Shown one piece after another: positions 3,001-18,888 of a stretch of DNA of 64,000 nucleotides. Under the pieces are notes generated by a model. The model saw nothing but the letters and a program-made list of their open reading frames with translations, made no database searches and was not told the DNA's origin. The stretch is from NCBI GenBank assembly GCA_937925735.1, contig CALAMK010000018.1, positions 48,572 through 112,571 on the forward strand, in the 5' to 3' direction. Source of the DNA: an uncultured Collinsella sp. (GTDB taxonomy: Bacteria; Actinomycetota; Coriobacteriia; Coriobacteriales; Coriobacteriaceae). The position numbers and the translations under genes were made by a program. How positions within the stretch are numbered: the first letter of the stretch is position 1; every line of letters starts with the position of its first letter.

Positions 3001-6000
3001 CATCAACTATGTGAATGCGCAGGCGACTATTACTTATTCTGAGAAGGATGCGGACGGCGTCCCGACGGCGTTTTTCGGTGGCGTTATCGGCTGCATTCTT
3101 GGCGGCGATAACATTATCGATCACGTGGCCGTTAATGAGACGACGACCGAAAACCCTACAACGGGATTTACCGTCACGGGCGGTGACGACAAGACGCATC
3201 TTGTTCCCATTGGCGGCTACGTCGGTGCCATTGCGGGCGGCGGTGTGATCTTCCGCAATATGGACAAAAGCGGGAAATCTTCCTGGCGTGCTGGAACTGG
3301 TGACAAATCTCGTGGTCTGGGAAAGGGCAACTTTGATCTCTACAACAATCCCTACGTCGGTCGTGTGATTGATGGCTATGCCTTTAGCGAGGGCTGTAAG
3401 GTTGAAAACGGTGACGCTAACTACAAGATTAACCAGCTCGATGTAGACGACACCGGCTGCGTTACCACCACCGATACGTACATGAAATTCAGCTGGGGTG
3501 CCGGCCAGCAAAACAACAAGGCTCCTAAAACTACAGTTAAAGATCAACAGGGCCTGCTCGTGCTGTCTGCCATTATCAACAGTGGCGCAGGTGCCGGAGC
3601 TGCTCATACCGACGTGACTGATGGCAGGGGCACGTATCGCGGATCACATGCGTATGAGGGCAGTAGCGTTCACGGCCTCATCTCCTCGACGGGATACAAG
3701 TTCGGAAATGAACGGTATGGCAAGGTTCGCAATGCGAATTACGCTGCGGTCGGAAAACCCGACGATGCCGACGCAGCGAGAGATTTCGCGACTTCGGTCA
3801 ACGATGATCTCAAGGCGCCGGGCAACCAGAACTACCAAGGTCCGCTGGACGGCAAAGACGGACAAGATATCAACTCGCCTTACTTGGTTAAGAAATATGC
3901 GACCGATTGGCGCACTGGCTATGTGTGTGCGATGGGCGTTTGCGGCATGGATCTGCAGTTTGAGCAAGGCGTGACCTATGATATGACGAATTACGGCTCG
4001 GGGTTCTTGGGTCTTTCGGGCCGCTATTACTCAAACGCATGCGCGACCGACAAGAAGGTCAACGACAAAGATTTCATCACCCCGGGTATCGCCACTGTCA
4101 AAGGCAACGGCGCAACAATCAAAGTGTCAAACAACGCGCGCGAATACGTGGATGACGACTACTGCGTGGCAGGCGTAGGCGGTCTGTTCAGCACTATCAA
4201 GTTCTACTCGAATGCATTCAATAAGGGAAGCATCGAAGCGAATGACAACGCAAACGTAAACAATCTCAACTTCAGCGACTGCAACATTTCGCTTACCTAT
4301 GTAACTTCCAATGGGGCAGAGCAGTCCACGTCGACGAGCAATACAAACAGCGGCTCGGTGGGAGTCGGCTGCCTTGCGGGCTCAACGGCAAACCAGGGAG
4401 TTTATGACAAGGTTACCTATGGCGTGTTCAAAAACGTCGGCATTTCTAACAGCACCGTAGTCGGAGGCTGCACGGCTGGCGGCCTCATTGGAAGTGCTGG
4501 CCTTATGTCGCGCAGCACCGATGGCGCCAACGGTTCGATTGTGAATTATGGGGGAACGTCCTCTCCTGTGCAGCTCCACGACTGCTCATATACCGACCTT
4601 AACGTCACGGGAAAGAAGAACGTTGGCGGCTACGTGGGTACGGTTGCCTCGGCGTGCGGCGTGTGGACAACCGCGGCCGAAGGAGTGGGCGAAAAGACTG
4701 TTGGCGCGAACTCGACCATAACTGCTACGGGACTAGCCTCAGAATGCCGTGCGGGCGGTGTGTTCGGTTATACCTCCAGCAACGTATCGGTGAACACCAA
4801 TATTGGCACCACGGTAGCCGCCGCATCGAGCACGGCGGTCATCTCCAAGGTCGATGTGCTCATCACCGGAGAGACTGCGGGGCAGTCGGAAGAACAATTG
4901 AAAAATATGGGTGCCGGCGGCGTGGTCGGAAACGCCTATAGCGGTGTTATCTCCATGAGCAACGTGCGCATTGAAGCCGGAGGCGGCACCGAGAACGCCA
5001 CTATTGGCGATAAGACCGGAAAGAATTCGAAGATTCGCAATGCGGGCGGCCTGATCGGGAAGGTTACGAGCGGTGGTAGCGGTTCCAACGCGTACTGGTT
5101 CAAGGACTGCGGCGTCAAGAATATCAACATCGCTGGCACCTACCAATGTTCAGGCGGGCTTATCGGCTACTACTTCAGCAATTTGGGCATAGCCTGCAAC
5201 AACATCGCAATTGAGGGCGCTACGATCAAGGGCAGCTGGAGCGGCGGTCTACTTGGCGCGATTAACAGAGGTTCCGACGTCATCGACGTCACCAACACAA
5301 AGGTTTCTAACACCACGTTTGGCGGAACATCCAACGGTGGCATCGCGGGCGACGGCCGCGGCCAGTTTCATCTGGTAAACGTGCTCATGGACAGCAATAT
5401 CTATAAATCTGACGCTAAGCAGGGTGTGCTCTTGGGCGAGGTCGACACAGGCGGCTATAGCCTTTCCGCAGCGGGCGTGGACGTAAAACCCGGCAAGGGC
5501 AAGACCACGAGCGACCTGCCGCCGATGGTTTACACGACCAATACGGCTGCGGTTAACAAGAAAACCTACATCGCGTTCGGAGACTACAACGACAGGCTCG
5601 ACGTACCCGGCAAGGACACCACACTCTACGGTGCGGACGATGCCGCCACAACGGCGGCAAGCCCGTACGTGACTACGAGCCCCGTGAGCACGCTGGCGGT
5701 GCGTGCCTCCAACGACGACACCACTGATCGCTATCTGTTTGGCGACGGTGTCGCCATTGACACCGCGACGACCATCCAGAGCGAGGCAGGCACCAGTGTT
5801 GCCGGCCGCTACACCTATACCAATATCGGCGGCATCAATGATGCCGGCGCGTACCAAAACACGAGCACCTATAGCGCGGACAGCCCAAGGCCCACTTTCA
5901 ACACCAACAACGTTACTTCGGGCAAGAAGGCCGCAACCGACTTCCCTGTACTCATGATTCCCGGCAACGACACGACGACGGTCGAGAAGTATCTGAACAT

Positions 6001-8311
6001 CGTGACTAACGGCGGCTTTTCCGATGCCCGCCGCCTCAACGGCAGCGCCAAGCACGTGACCGCCACCGCCGAGGTCTTCTCGCTTGCCGATAACGGCGCC
6101 TTCGTCAAGGACGCAAACGCCTCGCAAACGCCCACGCTCAAGGTGCTCAACAACGGCACGAGCTCCATGGTTTTCCGCGCGAGTACCGACTGGGACAACG
6201 AGCGGGGCCGCTTCACGCTGCTCACGGTCACTTTTAGCGAGGCCGGCCAGATCTACCGCGTGCAGGTGCCCATTATCGTTAAGCGCATGCTCGAGATCGA
6301 CTTCACCGCTACCTATTCCGAGGGCGCGAACTTTAAGGCTTCCGACTTTGAGACTAAATACGACAAGCACGTGCTTGTGAGCAGCGGCGATACCATGACC
6401 GGCTACCTTACCTGGACCTATGGTAGCGCCCGGGCCAAGCCAGTCGCTTACGGCTGGAACACGCTGCTCGAAGCCGGCGGCTCCATGGGCCCGCTCAACA
6501 AGAGCATCACCTTTGGTGCCACGCTGCCCGAGGGCACGCAGCTTACGCTCGTGGACACTGCTCATAACAACTGTGAATACCACTGCACGGTCGGCGCAGG
6601 CGGAGCGGCGTCGGTCAAGCTCACCGACTTTGTGGATGCCGGCAACAATGCCTACGTCGAGCCGTGGCTGAGCGAAATCGTGGGCGTGAAGGCCGATGAG
6701 GCCAAGGAGGACAAGCACGGTGCCTGGGTCAAGCTCGCCAATGACGAGGTCAAGGGCAAGAGCCAGGCCGAACTCTCGAAGATGGCTGGCGCCAAGGTCG
6801 ATGGCGCGTACTACCGCGCGCGCACTTCTTCCGACATGACGGGCACGTTCTATACCCTCTCCGTTGCCGAGGAAGAGCCCAAGAGTGAGAACTTCTACTT
6901 GGTGGTGCGCACGCCGGCGGGCTCTGCGGGTGTCAACGGCTACACTGCAACTACGGTGGACACGAGCCTCAACGAGCACATCAACTACCTGCTGCGAGGC
7001 AAGAAAGCAGCCGACGGCAAGGCTGCCGAGGATGGGCACCAGAATACGCCCTCGACCTATAGCGTGGCATCAAACTACACGCACAGCCTCGTTGACAACA
7101 AGCGTAACCTCGTCGACAACAGGGACAGCATCAGCCGGATGGAGCTCAAGGAAGCCACCTATTCGCTTTCCATGAACGTGAGCGACACCGTGACGTTTGA
7201 CTCGAGCCAGCAATACACGAGCTCTGACGCGCTGTATTATCAGCTCGATTCGTCGCTTGTCACCTATCACGATGGCGTCATCGCGGGCTCGGTAGGATAC
7301 CCCACGGGCACGCAGGGCACGTATGAGTTCTACGTTAAGGTGGGTGATAACTACTACACCTGGGGCGGGTCGGGTTGGAATCTGGCCGGCACGAAGGAGA
7401 CCCCAGTGGTGTCGGGCCTTAGTTGGACTGCGAACGGTGGCGACATGTCACTGGTGCTTGCCGATGCTGAGGGTAATCCCATCGACATGTCGGGCCTGCG
7501 CGAGATCGCCAAGAACCATGTCAACGCCTTCACCGTTACCATGAGGGCCGCGCTCACCATGACGGAGCCTGCCTGCCAGGCGGGTATCGTGGCCTCGCAG
7601 AACAGCGGCGCCGACCGCTACACCAAACCCAACTACCGCGCGTACCTTTCCACGCATGCCGACACGCTCAGCACCAGTAGCAACTCGGCATACAACGATG
7701 GCGGCGCCGGCTACTACCGTATGGATGTGGGCTCATCGACCATCGCGCTCGAGGCGTCTAAGAAATCCCAGTTGGGCATCAACATCGATGACCTCAAGTC
7801 CGCTGACGGCGAGATCGCTCTGGTGGGTACCTACGACCTGAGCAAGCTCACGGGCGCCGAGGCTAAGATCGACGCCGCAAACACGGTGACCTACACGCTG
7901 AGCCTGGAGCAGCGGCAAGATAATGGCGGCTATGCTCCGGTCGGCGATATCTCGAACTACATTACGGTGCTCGGCAGCGATTACCTAGGCACGGGTGCGG
8001 CATCCGCCGACGGCAACAGCTATGTGTTCACCGACACCAAGACCAACGGCGCGTTCCTCACGCGCGACGGCAACAGCCTCGCCTTTAAGCATGCCTTCCG
8101 CGTTAAAGTGAATACGAATGTTGAGGGTGAGAACCAAACTTACGCAAACTACCGCTTGGTGCTTACGGCCAATATTATGACCGGCAACGTTGTCGACGAC
8201 ACACCGGTCAACGTTAGCAACCTTGATGGCTATTCGCACTCCGACTACGTGACGTACACGCTAGCGCGCATCAACACCGAGGGCATTCGGCACGAGACGA
8301 AAACCAACTAG
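2..8311 (+). CDS. giant secreted/surface repeat protein, 5'-truncated by window edge (at least 2766 aa); GLUG-motif-like / parallel beta-helix-type Gly-rich repeats
   Basis: Single uninterrupted ORF from window edge to 8311. Protein is dominated by repeated GGLIG/GGIAG/VGGxxG motifs and N/T/S/G-rich composition typical of beta-helical adhesin/GLUG-type repeats. No LPXTG or other sorting motif at C-terminus. Frame continues upstream of position 11, so the N-terminus lies outside the window. Confidence 0.6.
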   Translation, partial: TITVNGTIDLKGTGLTGFTQDRADGSQVFSGTLNGGGTNGNSTINLAVGEPYGMRGEAVLDGNDTSNGNGKIYRHGRLGLFAAVNGATISNVTIAGSMKFDNGSAIDAGSLAGAIVGNLSLSGVTCKTNIACDDTFGNEVNIGGIAGSVSAASTVAFEGNSKAQATIAATKTLNGNMRIGGAIGNVGDYTSTFNVTRLEVGGSIETGNCASGKIAQVGGLIGRIVQGSNEKYVTITGLSFSEFAMTVGKNGDKLNGAGGLLGYSWGNAIVTIGDAAASASDNAYALKTANNTTVTANSSTEVGGLVYAASGHWIINNHAINLGGTSFVADSATTLGVLIARGSTSNSDNSFGAETNYNGLYLEDRAWWGTAYAVGGVSITAPKVKTYDEWLANGVKPNSKLTDNDCNAVVSLHTEADNLDMSGDPTKDNSYQNRIAPDKLPQTNGSVRYYYNLDRALAVVTNSKNDNATAMITPEHLVLWAARQYAPSATYDYLTGTKVSIFTNNVIGLDRGERKEINLTGYSYYPSNPNGDNPVTVQNVNIVFCYSRIRAEQESNKRNDSATQHENMHCGLIRTCDRSMTVSNVTLSGTIGRVKDDAAEEMDPESVSGALVLRCAHGSSGTEMANIKIDTLTLDGLQVDGAEDRKYAPLLINAITGYVNLDVKNVTTSNYAGTSGVNKVAASSLFGRLGYDKNSDQVTAKFERISLPSQNSNTIFTHASLLESFGYKSTGTGSADYIFTRAEADAGKVTYGSEIDGSTEYPDKQLWYYDKATYGTREGFVNVKGESTDAERPWFSDYLPYVAKGKATESGVQYHEIKVNQRISNLMMGCGTYGDPYTVKDATEMYTIANYINNSVALDGWEVTIVADQSRLCERRNETKIDSARTDNEVVYVYKQNNPSESKWEKKVDDTTDPSQTLSDETMHRYVQSAYYSIEPPEGNKITVDAASFGGFGNKANPFRGVIVGDPKSSEPATIEIKNNKGELRGLIPYSYGSVVRNLNINYVNAQATITYSEKDADGVPTAFFGGVIGCILGGDNIIDHVAVNETTTENPTTGFTVTGGDDKTHLVPIGGYVGAIAGGGVIFRNMDKSGKSSWRAGTGDKSRGLGKGNFDLYNNPYVGRVIDGYAFSEGCKVENGDANYKINQLDVDDTGCVTTTDTYMKFSWGAGQQNNKAPKTTVKDQQGLLVLSAIINSGAGAGAAHTDVTDGRGTYRGSHAYEGSSVHGLISSTGYKFGNERYGKVRNANYAAVGKPDDADAARDFATSVNDDLKAPGNQNYQGPLDGKDGQDINSPYLVKKYATDWRTGYVCAMGVCGMDLQFEQGVTYDMTNYGSGFLGLSGRYYSNACATDKKVNDKDFITPGIATVKGNGATIKVSNNAREYVDDDYCVAGVGGLFSTIKFYSNAFNKGSIEANDNANVNNLNFSDCNISLTYVTSNGAEQSTSTSNTNSGSVGVGCLAGSTANQGVYDKVTYGVFKNVGISNSTVVGGCTAGGLIGSAGLMSRSTDGANGSIVNYGGTSSPVQLHDCSYTDLNVTGKKNVGGYVGTVASACGVWTTAAEGVGEKTVGANSTITATGLASECRAGGVFGYTSSNVSVNTNIGTTVAAASSTAVISKVDVLITGETAGQSEEQLKNMGAGGVVGNAYSGVISMSNVRIEAGGGTENATIGDKTGKNSKIRNAGGLIGKVTSGGSGSNAYWFKDCGVKNINIAGTYQCSGGLIGYYFSNLGIACNNIAIEGATIKGSWSGGLLGAINRGSDVIDVTNTKVSNTTFGGTSNGGIAGDGRGQFHLVNVLMDSNIYKSDAKQGVLLGEVDTGGYSLSAAGVDVKPGKGKTTSDLPPMVYTTNTAAVNKKTYIAFGDYNDRLDVPGKDTTLYGADDAATTAASPYVTTSPVSTLAVRASNDDTTDRYLFGDGVAIDTATTIQSEAGTSVAGRYTYTNIGGINDAGAYQNTSTYSADSPRPTFNTNNVTSGKKAATDFPVLMIPGNDTTTVEKYLNIVTNGGFSDARRLNGSAKHVTATAEVFSLADNGAFVKDANASQTPTLKVLNNGTSSMVFRASTDWDNERGRFTLLTVTFSEAGQIYRVQVPIIVKRMLEIDFTATYSEGANFKASDFETKYDKHVLVSSGDTMTGYLTWTYGSARAKPVAYGWNTLLEAGGSMGPLNKSITFGATLPEGTQLTLVDTAHNNCEYHCTVGAGGAASVKLTDFVDAGNNAYVEPWLSEIVGVKADEAKEDKHGAWVKLANDEVKGKSQAELSKMAGAKVDGAYYRARTSSDMTGTFYTLSVAEEEPKSENFYLVVRTPAGSAGVNGYTATTVDTSLNEHINYLLRGKKAADGKAAEDGHQNTPSTYSVASNYTHSLVDNKRNLVDNRDSISRMELKEATYSLSMNVSDTVTFDSSQQYTSSDALYYQLDSSLVTYHDGVIAGSVGYPTGTQGTYEFYVKVGDNYYTWGGSGWNLAGTKETPVVSGLSWTANGGDMSLVLADAEGNPIDMSGLREIAKNHVNAFTVTMRAALTMTEPACQAGIVASQNSGADRYTKPNYRAYLSTHADTLSTSSNSAYNDGGAGYYRMDVGSSTIALEASKKSQLGINIDDLKSADGEIALVGTYDLSKLTGAEAKIDAANTVTYTLSLEQRQDNGGYAPVGDISNYITVLGSDYLGTGAASADGNSYVFTDTKTNGAFLTRDGNSLAFKHAFRVKVNTNVEGENQTYANYRLVLTANIMTGNVVDDTPVNVSNLDGYSHSDYVTYTLARINTEGIRHETKTN

Positions 8312-15118: not shown

Positions 15119-16207
15119 ATGGCACATCGCTCCGTTATTCCGTTTGGCCCGCAACACCCGGTGCTGCCCGAGCCGCTTCATCTGGACCTGGTGATCGAGG
15201 ACGACCGCGTTCTCGAGGCAATTCCGCAGATCGGCTTTGTGCACCGCGGACTCGAGAAGCTCACCGAAAAGCGCGACATGCATCAGTTTGGCTACATCGC
15301 CGAGCGCATCTGCGGCATCTGCGCCGTGGGCCACAGCTACGGTTATGCCAGCGCCTGCGAGCGCATGCTCGGCATCGAAGCGCCCGGCCGTGTGCAGTGT
15401 ATCCGCACCATTCTGCATGAGCTTTCGCGCATTCACTCGCACCTGCTGTGGCTGGGCCTGCTCGCCGATGCCTTTGGCTTTGAGGCGCTGTTCTATCGGT
15501 CGTGGACGCTGCGCGAGCAGATTCTCAAGATCTTTGAGAGCACCTGCGGCGGCCGCGTGATTCTGTCGATCAACGAGATCGGCGGCCTTAAGCACGACAT
15601 CGAGGACTCCGAGCTGGCGGGTATTGTCCAGACGCTCGACGCCATGCGCCCCGACTACGAGGCCCTGGTGCATACGTTTTTGGACGACAATAGCTGCGGC
15701 GAGCGCCTGCATGGCGTGGGCGTGATCAGCAAGAAGGACGCGCTGGAGCTTTCGATGGTCGGTCCGTTCGGTCGCGCCTCGGGCGTGGACTACGACGTGC
15801 GTATGTTCGGCGACGGCGCCTATGCGGATCTGGCCGCGTTTGAGCCCATCGTTGCCACAGACGGCGACTGCTATGCCCGCTGCCAGGTGCGTTGTGCCGA
15901 GGTCATGCAGGCCATGGACATTATCAAGGAGCTTGTGGGCAAGATTCCGCACGACGGTATCGGCGGGCGCACCAAGCTTACGCCGGCCGACGGCGCGCGC
16001 GGCGAGGTTGTGATTGAGCAGCCGCGCGGCGAGGCGTACTACTATGTGCGCGGCAACGGCACCAAGAATCTGGACCGTTTTCGCGTGCGCACGCCGACGT
16101 CGCAGAACCTGGCGGGTCTGACGCATGCGCTGCAGGGCGTGCTCCTTGCCAACGTGCCCATGATTATCCTGACCATCGACCCCTGCATTAGCTGCACGGA
16201 AAGGTAG
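15119..16207 (+). CDS. echE: [NiFe] hydrogenase large (catalytic) subunit, Ech-type (NuoD-like)
   Basis: N-terminal ERICGICAVGHS (RxCGxC Ni-ligand motif) and C-terminal DPCISCTER (DPCxxCxxR) both present; 362 aa is typical of group-4 energy-converting hydrogenase large subunits. Confidence 0.85.
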   Translation: MAHRSVIPFGPQHPVLPEPLHLDLVIEDDRVLEAIPQIGFVHRGLEKLTEKRDMHQFGYIAERICGICAVGHSYGYASACERMLGIEAPGRVQCIRTILHELSRIHSHLLWLGLLADAFGFEALFYRSWTLREQILKIFESTCGGRVILSINEIGGLKHDIEDSELAGIVQTLDAMRPDYEALVHTFLDDNSCGERLHGVGVISKKDALELSMVGPFGRASGVDYDVRMFGDGAYADLAAFEPIVATDGDCYARCQVRCAEVMQAMDIIKELVGKIPHDGIGGRTKLTPADGARGEVVIEQPRGEAYYYVRGNGTKNLDRFRVRTPTSQNLAGLTHALQGVLLANVPMIILTIDPCISCTER

Positions 16208-16214
16208 GCGCGGC

Positions 16215-16556
16215 ATGAGTTTACTGACATTTGCCAAGACGGCCTTGGGCTCTATGGTCAAGCAGCCGGTAACGGTGTGCTATCCGCAGGAGAAGCTGGC
16301 GGCGCCCGAGCGCTTGCGCGGGCATATCGTCAACGACATGGATGTGTGCATTTGCTGTGGTATGTGCGCACGTCGCTGCCCGGCGGGCGCGCTCACGGTC
16401 GATCGCAAGGGTGGTACCTGGTCGATTGACCCGTATGCCTGCGTGGTGTGCGGTGAGTGCATCGAAAGCTGTCCCAAACACTGCCTGACTATGGACACCG
16501 CCCGCATTCCAGTTGCGGCGGACAAGACTCCCACGGTAGAAACCAAGCCGGAGTAG
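16215..16556 (+). CDS. echF: 2x[4Fe-4S] ferredoxin-like hydrogenase subunit (NuoI-like, EchF-type)
   Basis: Two CxxCxxCxxxCP clusters: CICCGMCARRCP and CVVCGECIESCP. Confidence 0.8.
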   Translation: MSLLTFAKTALGSMVKQPVTVCYPQEKLAAPERLRGHIVNDMDVCICCGMCARRCPAGALTVDRKGGTWSIDPYACVVCGECIESCPKHCLTMDTARIPVAADKTPTVETKPE

Positions 16557-16576
16557 CGTTGGAATAGAGTTGGAAT

Positions 16577-16611
16577 AGGGGCCGGTGGGGCAAAATTGCC
16601 CCACCGGCCCC
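16577..16611 (+). terminator. strong GC hairpin after ech operon (terminator-like, no U-tract)
   Basis: GGGGCCGGTGGGGC-aaaatt-GCCCCACCGGCCCC, 14-bp perfect stem. Confidence 0.5.
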
Positions 16612-16642
16612 GCGCTTAAACGCGCGGTTGGGCCGCCGCGAA

Positions 16643-16795
16643 CAAAACTATGCCGGATTACGGGGCTGGATAGCGAACCCCCGACCATACCGAAAACCAC
16701 GAAAATAAAACCGCAGGTAGATAGCTTGCTGTTTTTCAAAAAATGAAGGTATGGATGAGGGCTCCGGCTTTAGCCCCGTAATCCGGCATAGTTTT
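16643..16795. repeat. MITE-like hairpin element unit 1 (25-bp perfect terminal inverted repeats, ~150 bp)
   Basis: Left end CAAAACTATGCCGGATTACGGGGCT at 16643-16667; right end AGCCCCGTAATCCGGCATAGTTTTG at 16771-16795. These are exact reverse complements. Confidence 0.8.
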
Positions 16796-16902
16796 GAAAT
16801 GCCACCATATCAGTACCAGCCCCTGATCTCCCGTGGACAGAGGGAAACGGATCATTTTGGTCCCGCGAGGCTTGCGGAGGCACTCGTGCAGGGCCGCCCG
16901 AA

Positions 16903-17046
16903 CAAAACTATGTCGGTTTACTACGATGAATTCGACATTCCCGACCATGACTGCATTTTTCTAAATATTGCAAGCGTTCTACCTGCGGTTTTGCAAGTGC
17001 GCAATTTGCCGTGGTCAAAGGTGGGCGATTCACCGTAGTAAACCGG
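16903..17046. repeat. MITE-like hairpin element unit 2 (26-bp TIR with 2 mismatches, ~145 bp), tandem diverged copy of unit 1
   Basis: Left end CAAAACTATGTCGGTTTACTACGATG; right end CACCGTAGTAAACCGGCATAGTTTTG. Outer 14 bp CAAAACTATGCCGG is shared with unit 1. Flanking GGGCCGCC(G)CGAA and GAAATGSCA are also duplicated, so a ~260-bp tandem duplication. Confidence 0.75.
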
Positions 17047-17116
17047 CATAGTTTTGAAATGGCATTAAAGCGGTAGCAGCCATTTTGCTATGCCGGGGTG
17101 GTCGGCCGTTGGGTAA

Positions 17117-17746
17117 TTACCCTCGCAGGTAGGCAATGGCGATCTGTGTGCGGTTGCGTAGGCCCATTTTGGCAAGGATCGAGCTGATGTGGTTGCGCAC
17201 GGTGCCTTCGCCCATGTATGCCGTGGCGGCAATCTCCTTGTTGTCGAGGCCACGGGCGATGAGCTCGGCGACTTCGAACTCGCGGTCGGTCAGGCTGGCA
17301 AAGGCGGCGGGCCGGCGGGGCGTGCTGGCATCGGCGCCTGTCCCGTCAAAATCGATGTCCTCGATCGCCTTGCCCTCGAGCACGCGTTTGCCGTCCATGA
17401 CCTGCGCCAGCGCTGGCGGAATGGCGGCGACATCGGTCTTGATCAGGTAACCGCGGGCGCCCAGCTTGAGCGCCGACACAATGTACTCGTCATCCGAGAA
17501 CGTCGTCAGAAACACCACGCGCGCTGCAGGATCACGCTCAAGGATCTCGCGTGCCGCCGAAAGACCGTCCCGCCCCGGCATCTGAATGTCGAGCAGTGCG
17601 ATATCGGGTGCGTGTTCGGCATAGAGAGCCGCTGCGTCGTTGCCGTTGGCACCGGTGCCCACCACCTCGATCTGCGGCTGGGCGCCCAGGATAATCTTGA
17701 GCGAATCGACCACTAGGCGGTCGTCGTCGACAACGATGAGCCTCAT
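17117..17746 (-). CDS. two-component response regulator, NarL/LuxR family
   Basis: REC domain (VVDDDRLV...DIALLDIQMPGRDG) plus C-terminal LuxR HTH (LTDREFEVAELIARGLDNKEIAATAYMGEGTVRNHISSILAKMGL). Confidence 0.85.
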   Translation of the reverse strand: MRLIVVDDDRLVVDSLKIILGAQPQIEVVGTGANGNDAAALYAEHAPDIALLDIQMPGRDGLSAAREILERDPAARVVFLTTFSDDEYIVSALKLGARGYLIKTDVAAIPPALAQVMDGKRVLEGKAIEDIDFDGTGADASTPRRPAAFASLTDREFEVAELIARGLDNKEIAATAYMGEGTVRNHISSILAKMGLRNRTQIAIAYLRG

Positions 17747-18888
17747 CGGCCCTCATCTCCTTGCTGCTTGGGAACGGTGGCAAACACGCGCCAGCCGGCG
17801 GCGCCGGCGCGCGGCCCGGCGGTGAAGGTACCGCCAAGCGCCTCGATGCGCTCGCGCATAGAGGCGAGCCCCATGCCCTCCGCGGCGCCGCGGCTGCTTG
17901 CTTGAACCCCGCCCATGCCATCGTCGGTAACAACGAGCTGGTAAAACGACGGATGCTCCATGCACCGTACGGTGACAGCATGGGCGCAAGCGTGGCGCAT
18001 GGTGTTGGAGAGCGCCTCGCGCAGGACTGCCGCAAAGCAGTTGGCGACGTTTGCGGGCGCATGTTCGGTCATAACTTCAAACTCAATCTGCGGGCCGCCG
18101 TCCGAGCGCGCGCCTTCGACAATGCGTTCGAGCTGCATGGAAAGGTCGACGGCGTTGTCGTTGAGCGCGTGGACGCTGGTGCGCACAAGCTGGAGCGCCT
18201 CGTCAACCGTGCGTTTGACGTCGGCGAAATCGGCGGCAACCCTGGGCTCGTCGGCGTGCACGACGCGCAGGGCCTCGGTCTGCAGTGAGGCGCGCGTGAG
18301 CTGGTGCCCGACGTTATCGTGGATTTCGCGCGCGATGCGGGCGCGTTCGGCGAGTGTCGCGAGCTCGACTTCGTAGTCCTGGCGGTCGGCAAGATCGCGG
18401 TTGCGCGCCTCGAGCGCGAGGGCTCGTTCCTGCAGCTCGTCGCGGGTGTGGCGCATGCGCTGCTGTTCGCGCTCCAACTGGGCGGTGCGTAGCGATAACA
18501 AGGTGGCGGCAACCGAAAGGATGGCGGTCAGCAGGAGCGTTCGGGCGGTGAGCACGTTGGTGCGAAGGTCCGCGACGAGCGCAAAAGCAAAGACGGAGCC
18601 AATGCCCAGCGCGACCCAGGCGCGCTCACGGCGCACGCGCCGCGCGGTGTCATAGAGGGCGAGAGGCGCAAACGGCACAAACGGCGGCACGAAGACAGCC
18701 ACGATGATGTAAGCGTAACTCGCGGCCTCGCTTGTGCGGCTCGTGCGTTCTCCCTTTGCGACCTCGGCCAGCGAGGTGGCGATAACGCCAAGGCAAAACG
18801 CCGCGACCAGGCGAGCGTCCACAGTAAGACCTATGGCGGCCGCAATGCAGCACACCAGCACAATCGATTTGTCGAAAAGCCTGTTCAT
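17743..18888 (-). CDS. sensor histidine kinase, HisKA_3 (DesK/LiaS/LnrJ-type) with N-terminal transmembrane helices
   Basis: H-box REIHDNVGHQLTRASL and a C-terminal HATPase region. Overlaps the RR start by 4 nt. Start chosen at MNRLFDKSIV (ATG 18888) where the TM region begins; the ORF is open to 19080 but that extension is Arg/Gly-rich and unlikely. Confidence 0.7.
   Translation of the reverse strand: MNRLFDKSIVLVCCIAAAIGLTVDARLVAAFCLGVIATSLAEVAKGERTSRTSEAASYAYIIVAVFVPPFVPFAPLALYDTARRVRRERAWVALGIGSVFAFALVADLRTNVLTARTLLLTAILSVAATLLSLRTAQLEREQQRMRHTRDELQERALALEARNRDLADRQDYEVELATLAERARIAREIHDNVGHQLTRASLQTEALRVVHADEPRVAADFADVKRTVDEALQLVRTSVHALNDNAVDLSMQLERIVEGARSDGGPQIEFEVMTEHAPANVANCFAAVLREALSNTMRHACAHAVTVRCMEHPSFYQLVVTDDGMGGVQASSRGAAEGMGLASMRERIEALGGTFTAGPRAGAAGWRVFATVPKQQGDEGR

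Follow-up and report, generated by a model that had tools for sequence, protein, structure and literature searches.

The window analysed here, a stretch of 64,000 nucleotides from an uncultured Collinsella sp. (contig CALAMK010000018.1), carries an operon for an Ech-type [NiFe] hydrogenase and, convergent to it, the gene of a response regulator. Between the two, in the intergenic region from the stop codon of the last ech gene to that of the regulator gene (16557-17116), lie two palindromic units of exactly 154 bp each, whose starts are 260 bp apart (Table 1). This setting, described in an original prediction made from the sequence alone, is borne out by the Pfam content of the neighbouring genes, which comprises NiFeSe_Hases/Complex1_49kDa, Complex1_30kDa, Fer4, a HisKA_3 kinase and an ABC transporter. 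Both units are members of a repeat family that recurs at many loci in Collinsella.

Structure of the two units

The arms of unit 1 are reverse complements without a mismatch over 25 nt, as had been stated for its terminal inverted repeats and as inverted-repeat detection confirmed; they are still 80% complementary when extended over 49 nt. Those of unit 2 are 93% complementary over 29 nt. Two units of about 150 bp had been predicted. Both are present, but the second had been drawn 10 bp too short and ends at 17056, not at 17046. The outer 14 bp said to be common to the arms could be verified: CAAAACTATGCCGG (with up to two mismatches) occurs at the four arm positions of the locus, one arm copy having a T at position 11, and elsewhere in the 64 kb there is only one unrelated match with two mismatches, shuffled sequences giving 0.2.

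The duplication of the immediate flanks was also found as described, in the form of direct repeats on both sides of the units: GGGCCGCC(G)CGAA at 16630-16642 and 16891-16902, and AAATGSCA...CAGCC at 16797-16821 and 17057-17081. The further claim that the whole module of about 260 bp had been duplicated in tandem and had then diverged does not hold. While the flanks are direct, the interiors of the units are inverted relative to each other (34% identical on the same strand, 59% once one of them is reverse-complemented), and overall identity peaks at 65.6%, a value that is reached only after one unit is reverse-complemented. Because the interiors are inverted and the units come from different subfamilies, the locus is not a simple diverged tandem duplication.

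Folding of the units with their flanks as single strands, a check proposed with the original prediction, yields stable hairpins of -84 kcal/mol for unit 1 and -74.8 kcal/mol for unit 2, with z-scores of -6.7 and -5.5 relative to shuffled sequences. The lack of coding capacity was upheld as well, as there is no conserved open reading frame (ORF) and the sole called one has no Pfam match. This ORF of 70 aa (16736-16948, minus strand), called by metagenome annotations, extends from unit 1 over the spacer into unit 2. It is likely to be spurious and created by the repeat, and since the array differs from genome to genome, conservation of this ORF is excluded.

Table 1. Features between the ech operon and the regulator gene, with positions in the window.
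Feature	Position	Strand	Basis or remark
Last ech gene, 4Fe-4S subunit	16215-16556	+	Upstream border of the gap
GC-rich perfect 16-bp hairpin directly after the ech stop	16578-16611	+	Inverted-repeat detection
Left junction module: small hairpin CCGCGCTTAAACGCGCGG, then GGGCCGCCGCGAA (16630-16642)	16612-16642	+	Sequence
Unit 1, 154-bp palindrome, GGGGC-stem subfamily, ech-proximal type	16643-16796	+	nhmmer, 148 bits
Unit 1 arms, 25-nt perfect reverse complements (CAAAACTATGCCGGATTACGGGGCT)	16643-16667 and 16772-16796		
Unit 1 apex AAAACCGCAGGTAGA, invariant and asymmetric; sets unit polarity	16707-16721	+	
Tail motif AAATGCCACCATATCAGTACCAGCC after unit 1	16797-16821	+	Flank comparison; follows units at many unrelated loci
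Linker between the units, 106 bp	16797-16902	+	Junction in shared motif 16833-16860
Unit 2, 154-bp palindrome, TACGA-stem subfamily, regulator-proximal type	16903-17056	- (core)	nhmmer, 143 bits
Unit 2 apex AAAACCGCAGGTAGA, invariant	16978-16992	-	
Tail motif AAATGGCATTAAAGCGGTAGCAGCC after unit 2	17057-17081	+	Direct repeat and flank comparison
Arm-like remnant ATTTTGCTATGCCGG	17082-17096	+	CTATGCCGG common to it and the unit ends
Regulator gene (Response_reg, GerE)	17117-17746	-	Downstream border of the gap

A repeat family in Collinsella

A scan for the 19-nt end pattern CAAAACTATGNCGGNTTAC covered one genome of each prokaryotic species. Other copies, which the original prediction had left to a genome search, were found at no fewer than 120 loci, all from Collinsella among the matches listed and belonging to at least 13 locus types; paired arms lie 154 bp apart in 52 of the 56 pairs. 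A profile of the unit, run with nhmmer on the retrieved loci and on the window, identified 185 units in the former and just the two known ones in the latter.

Alignment of 105 distinct full-length copies revealed a constant length of 154 bp, with 19 conserved nucleotides at each end (arm end sequence CAAAACTATGCCGGWTTAC). A GACCAY/RTGGTC pairing block is common to these copies, and the apex AAAACCGCAGGTAGA forms their most conserved interior columns. The inner stems occur in two alternatives, GGGGC/GCCCC in 62 sequences and TACGA/TCGTA in 42, which are never mixed. There is also a second unit type, referred to here as ‘B’, which has the same interior and different ends (CCACGAAATGGGCCCATCTACTACG); it recurs at several loci, usually one period away from a canonical unit. 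Two further elements are found around the units at several unrelated loci, namely the tail AAATGGCAC-N9-GTAnCAGC and the linker motif GGGGACNGAGGRAAACGGRTCATYTTGG.

That the 19-nt ends and the 15-nt apex are so strictly conserved suggests recognition by a protein. Both are probably binding sites, putatively of a past mobilising enzyme or of a host protein. The apex stem (AACCGCAGG/CCTGCGGTT; 16707-16735 and 16964-16992 in the window, 5967-6120 in locus L116) is nearly identical to the stem of 16S rRNA helix 45 (AACCGUAGG/CCUGCGGUU). The loops differ, and the likeness is probably due to chance.

Base pairing was evaluated across the family with a hairpin model of 44 pairs. In this model 89.7% of the cells are paired, versus 30-42% when the 3' partner is slid by one to three columns. 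Thirteen pairs are changed on both sides, among them the switch between GGGGC/GCCCC and TACGA/TCGTA, and these double-sided changes indicate that the palindrome is actively maintained. The folding energies are balanced between the strands, with 55 units favouring one strand and 50 the other, which points to a palindrome at the DNA level rather than an RNA of one strand. On the core strand, G-U cells exceed A-C cells by 441:180. Much of this excess derives from two fixed pairs of the core helix and from the derivation of the model from that strand. A test of strand bias for a hairpin at the RNA level was discarded, as the G-U excess is in part an artefact and the energies are symmetric.

Upon sequence clustering the units group by locus, and the copies have therefore mostly been inherited vertically. 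Unit 1 falls into cluster 19 together with 17 others, 16 of them ech-proximal and one, in locus L103, an ech-type unit at the regulator position. Unit 2 is in cluster 4 with 15 other regulator-proximal units. At its own position, each of the two is conserved to 86-97% in other genomes of Collinsella, where the ech flanks of the window match to 92-95%; an exact 40-mer from its ech operon is present in L053, L080 and L092.

Full-text literature searches returned no mention of the unit sequences or of miniature inverted-repeat transposable elements (MITEs) in Collinsella. In the literature on ‘invertons’ and Collinsella, the paper listed deals with Bacteroides thetaiotaomicron and not with this locus. 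The repeat family appears to be undescribed so far; the kind of element is well known. On the genomes compared, the family would seem to be confined to Collinsella.

Genomic placement

According to flank clustering, the units are located at 13 or more locus types whose neighbour genes are ordinary and unrelated to each other. Besides the ech-regulator gap these include argS and rho; a Mur ligase, an M24 peptidase and DUF1667; an exonuclease/phosphatase and an ECF S component; ABC-F with a tRNA-Val/Ala/Met cluster; RecN and RpiR; components of the phosphotransferase system (PTS), an aldose epimerase and GH1; MarR with an ABC exporter; a pyridoxal-type kinase; LacI with PTS IIA; and an ABC1 kinase. 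With gene calls validated by the GC content of third codon positions (GC3), about four gap types are convergent, about seven co-directional and one divergent. In the co-directional gaps the units occur in both orientations relative to transcription (three to four locus types versus three), and there is thus no orientation rule. A rule by which the unit follows the 3' end of the right-hand gene in the manner of a terminator had been considered; it came from spurious ORFs and was gone after GC3-based calling.

Large serine recombinase genes were seen beside tRNA-Ala in Collinsella proviruses from IMG/VR (L131, 2021-3911; L133, 8157-10056). The prophage serine integrase lies 130 nt from a unit which belongs to the host flank and not to the phage. 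A phage origin of the units was rejected: the four IMG/VR matches are host flanks, obtained because the prophage is inserted beside tRNA-Ala near a unit. A search of the phage collection gave no match to the units. Matches in the plasmid collection are solely pieces of Collinsella chromosomes labelled as plasmids. As an example, the PLSDB entry NZ_OY725717.1 (L215), a 900-kb ‘plasmid 6’ of C. aerofaciens TSDC17.2-1.1, is almost certainly a mislabelled piece of the chromosome, because it carries argS, rho and carD.

In the tRNA cluster, L010 (3601-4900) carries two tandem copies of a module made up of tRNA-Ala(GGC) and a unit. The tRNA-Met(CAT) gene, equipped with a promoter and a terminator of its own, has in L104 (1-1400) the opposite orientation to that in L010 and L078 (2200-3200).

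Variation of the array and the adhesin gene

The ech-regulator locus was compared over a combined set of 200 loci. Its gap measures 300/310 bp with one unit, 570-610 bp with B plus a unit and about 800 bp with unit, B and unit; a gap of 560 bp is found only in the window and its near-identical strains. Among the arrays are unit(+)-linker-unit(-), unit-B-unit and B-unit; their period is about 260 bp. Three single-unit alleles sit in identical flanks. Two of them have a TACGA-type unit, whose core lies on the minus strand in L080 and L092 and on the plus strand in L101, L138 and L139, and the third has a GGGGC-type unit (L176). Such alleles would be the expected remnants of deletion between the 18-20-nt identical arm ends of neighbouring units. 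In L140 a hybrid unit, canonical in its left half and of type B in its right half, is joined at the apex. The argS-rho gap is seen in two alleles, one with a lone unit and one in which a B-linker-unit array points the other way.

In 54 loci the ech-proximal unit is separated from the B or regulator-proximal unit by a 6.8-kb gene for a large adhesin, which most Collinsella have there and which is absent in 19 loci and in the window. The protein, represented by L015 (1280-7564, minus strand), has 2094 aa with a VWA domain and ten Spy0128-like isopeptide (FctA) domains. The 106-bp spacer of the window aligns to L015 twice, to 7803-7737 after the ech-proximal unit and to 965-887 before the regulator-proximal unit. 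As the two matches overlap in the shared linker motif, the window represents an adhesin-less allele, and judging from these alignments its spacer is a scar in which the linkers from either side of the adhesin gene have been joined. The junction falls in a direct repeat of about 35-40 nt. The direction of the event, loss as opposed to gain, is one that we infer.

Ten contigs with an identical regulator protein share the same arrangement, with 0-17 substitutions over the covered part of the 560-bp region, and no inversion occurs among them. A recent inversion, sought in these contigs, was accordingly dropped as a candidate; L126, which ends inside unit 1 with a chimeric tail, was uninformative.

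In the first 300 nt after the ech stop of a metagenome contig (OLXG01004885.1, L205), a unit is followed by the right flank of the PTS-IIB/aldose-epimerase locus (L050); either the chromosome was rearranged by way of the repeat or the assembly is chimeric. Among the metagenome loci L135-L214, the contig ended less than 900 nt downstream of ech in 21 of 80, several of them ending only 11-75 nt past the stop codon. Short-read assembly appears to fail at the repeat array.

Flanking features of the locus

The hairpin that follows the ech stop codon is the terminator-like hairpin of the ech operon itself and is separate from the repeat. It is kept in L198, a locus without any unit between the ech terminator and the next gene. 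The left junction module is repeated ahead of unit 2 and is missing from L198. The arm-like remnant is conserved in the regulator-proximal flank of other genomes.

Interpretation

We favour, with moderate confidence, the view that the units form a low-copy, genus-restricted family of non-coding and non-autonomous palindromic intergenic repeats, similar to MITEs, ERIC or REPIN-BIME elements. Such a family would have been dispersed to about a dozen intergenic regions per genome and would now be largely immobile. Canonical units, B units and conserved linkers together make up short mosaic arrays, whose main demonstrable effect is that their conserved arms, cores and linkers serve as substrates for recombination or replication slippage. 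These processes change the number of units, swap or flip them and generate hybrid units, and in the lineage of the window such rearrangement is associated with the absence of the adhesin gene between the units. If transcribed, a unit is predicted to form a hairpin of about -70 to -85 kcal/mol, which might plausibly act as a barrier that keeps transcription of the convergent ech and regulator genes from running into the opposite gene.

The original prediction had called the elements ‘MITE-like’. In form this is justified, as they are short and non-coding, have long terminal inverted repeats and constitute a dispersed family, but neither a target-site duplication nor a clean empty site nor a neighbouring transposase was found at the loci examined. 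Several observations weigh against the view that we favour. The proposed check for target-site duplications was negative in the flanks of about 100 copies compared in register; these flanks often extend the palindrome (TTT on one side, AAA on the other) instead of forming direct repeats. No clean pair of insertion and empty site was found among the loci examined. Two sites lack a unit, L198 between ech and the adhesin gene and L078 between tRNA-Met and tRNA-Ala, and the boundaries of both are those of an imprecise replacement; other locus types of the family, sought for empty sites within the window, are not present there. A fuzzy search of about 1 Mb of Collinsella loci revealed no distant paired arms that would mark an autonomous partner, and one solo arm outside the units. 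No gene for a transposase, RAYT (Y1 HUH) or recombinase adjoins the units at 13 locus types. The copy number is low, with two places in the 900-kb C. aerofaciens record and, according to nhmmer, no unit in the window outside the ech-regulator locus. As to the putative role as a transcription barrier, a simple terminator scan gave only two weak central matches (6-bp stems with three GC pairs) against 1.0 expected, and ech already has its own hairpin. Finally, an apex that is both asymmetric and invariant is not typical of a purely selfish MITE and may point to a function for the host. The copies seem, as far as the compared sequences tell, to be mostly fixed and vertically inherited, and any present mobility would be hypothetical.

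The alternative that the units act as structured RNA, namely as long-stem terminators, 3'-end stabilisers or RNase III targets in neighbouring mRNAs or small RNAs (sRNAs), is in our view unlikely. It would account for the very stable predicted hairpins, for the small central hairpin placed between A and T runs as in a bidirectional terminator, and for the centre of most copies, which on the reverse-complement strand reads CCTGCGGTTTTnTTTT; about four locus types are convergent and only one divergent, and the G-U to A-C ratio on the core strand is in its favour too. However, the folding energy is symmetric between strands, much of the G-U excess comes from the two fixed pairs mentioned above, and both orientations are found in co-directional gaps and at the argS-rho and regulator sites. 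Moreover, ech, argS and the adhesin gene each have a terminator hairpin of their own between stop codon and unit. The structured sRNA pair or riboswitch offered by the original prediction remains unsupported, with no Rfam match near threshold, no promoter and no consistent strand bias. A scan of 16000-17800 with Rfam 15 (E up to 10) gave noise only, such as miRNA models and ar35; the best scores were 22 bits against gathering thresholds of 45-107 (ar35, 21 against 45), at E values of 0.28 or higher. No sigma-70-like promoter site was detected in 16300-17300. A sigma-54 reading of the tail motif (TGGCAC-N5) was rejected, since the TTGC element at -12 is missing.

Less probable than a structured RNA is that the units are inverton-like or cassette-like sites of a putative site-specific recombinase which inverts the enclosed segment or inserts and excises neighbouring DNA such as the adhesin gene. 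Conserved arms around an invariant asymmetric apex resemble the logic of lox or dif sites. The orientation of the core differs between genomes in the same flanks (regulator-proximal and argS-rho), the hybrid unit of L140 is joined exactly at the core, the gene for a large surface protein between the units is present or absent among genomes, and in L104 the tRNA-Met segment adjoining units is inverted. Yet the units in opposite orientation belong to different subfamilies (65-75% identity) and are not flipped copies, the ten strains with an identical regulator show no orientation variants, and the adhesin loss has its junction in a linker motif and thus outside the units. No promoter was found within the units, and no recombinase gene adjoins any locus type, the sole one belonging to the prophage beside a tRNA. 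Slippage or homologous recombination between the direct repeats of 18-40 bp that bracket the palindromes can explain all of the variation. We would rank lower still the broader idea that the units are recognition sites of a putative Collinsella system for recombination or DNA binding which drives gain, loss and flipping of adjacent DNA. If true, it would imply cassette-like variation of surface and housekeeping loci, including the 2094-aa pilus-type adhesin and tRNA modules.

Units that serve as chromosomal binding sites of a host protein, for instance of a nucleoid-associated protein or as polar fork barriers at about a dozen places per genome, would have a low copy number and fixed positions across Collinsella species, as is observed; the units also have polarity, and their 19-nt ends and 15-nt apex are far more conserved than the rest. 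An essential site is hard to square with the free variation of unit number and orientation at one locus and with the lack of a unit in L198, and no protein partner is known, so that we regard this reading as very improbable. A purely local palindromic tandem duplication without any family could be suspected from the window, which contains only two copies in 64 kb. The interiors are inverted with respect to each other and 65.6% identical, and the 13 or more positions are unrelated; the at least 120 loci elsewhere in Collinsella refute this idea, to which we assign next to no probability.

Collinsella is a common genus of the human gut with a very high strain diversity. The repeat family marks recombination-prone gaps. 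It helps to explain how strains come to differ in structure, here in whether they carry a giant adhesin with isopeptide domains, why metagenome assemblies break at these sites and where annotation yields spurious small ORFs. It is also a convenient genus-specific marker. The general view of bacterial repeats is left unchanged by it.

Comparison with known systems

With the attC sites of integrons the units have in common that they are imperfect palindromes (up to about 140 bp in attC) with conserved ends which bracket a gene that is present or absent. In the Collinsella units, however, the middle is the most conserved part, whereas it is variable in attC, and most units are not located beside cassette-like genes. 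An assignment to attC was rejected, as the ends CAAAAC...GTTTTGA do not fit the RYYYAAC/GTTRRRY boxes; an integrase for such sites was not found in any locus, apart from the phage serine recombinase. Invertons are similar in having a segment of about 100 bp between inverted repeats of 19-25 bp, in their occurrence in gut commensals, in being found in either orientation among genomes and in the vicinity of a surface adhesin locus. The Collinsella units differ from them by a palindrome that runs through most of the interior, by the lack of an internal promoter or a nearby invertase, and by near-identical strains that are not polymorphic in orientation.

Correia elements are MITEs of Neisseria (100-155 bp) with terminal inverted repeats of about 25 bp and a central IHF site. 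They duplicate a TA target, exist in hundreds of copies, are polymorphic in insertion between strains and have outward promoters; none of these traits was found for the Collinsella units. Size, terminal inverted repeats of about 25 bp, a conserved central site and intergenic location are alike. A further likeness is that Correia transcripts form RNase III-sensitive hairpins, to which the Collinsella units have only a predicted hairpin to compare.

REP sequences of about 35 bp and REPINs of about 80-110 bp are present in hundreds of copies in E. coli and Pseudomonas. The Collinsella units, by contrast, are 154 bp long and confined to about a dozen loci, and no RAYT gene flanked by units was seen in the loci examined. 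As in BIMEs and REPINs, the units are arranged in mosaic arrays with alternating orientation, conserved linkers and a strain-variable number of units; they lack a target-site duplication, are mostly outside coding regions and act as substrates of rearrangement.

The enterobacterial repetitive intergenic consensus (ERIC or IRU) has about 127 bp, and bcr1 of the Bacillus cereus group about 155 bp with a TTTAT target duplication, which has no counterpart in the Collinsella units. The sequences are unrelated, and the Collinsella family differs further by its host from the Coriobacteriia, its far lower copy number (about a dozen loci), its short arrays with linkers and a second unit type, and its invariant asymmetric apex. 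Like ERIC and bcr1, the Collinsella units are non-coding, intergenic, imperfect palindromes over their whole length of 125-155 bp, which are restricted to one clade, often occupy orthologous positions in related genomes and are predicted to form long RNA or DNA hairpins.

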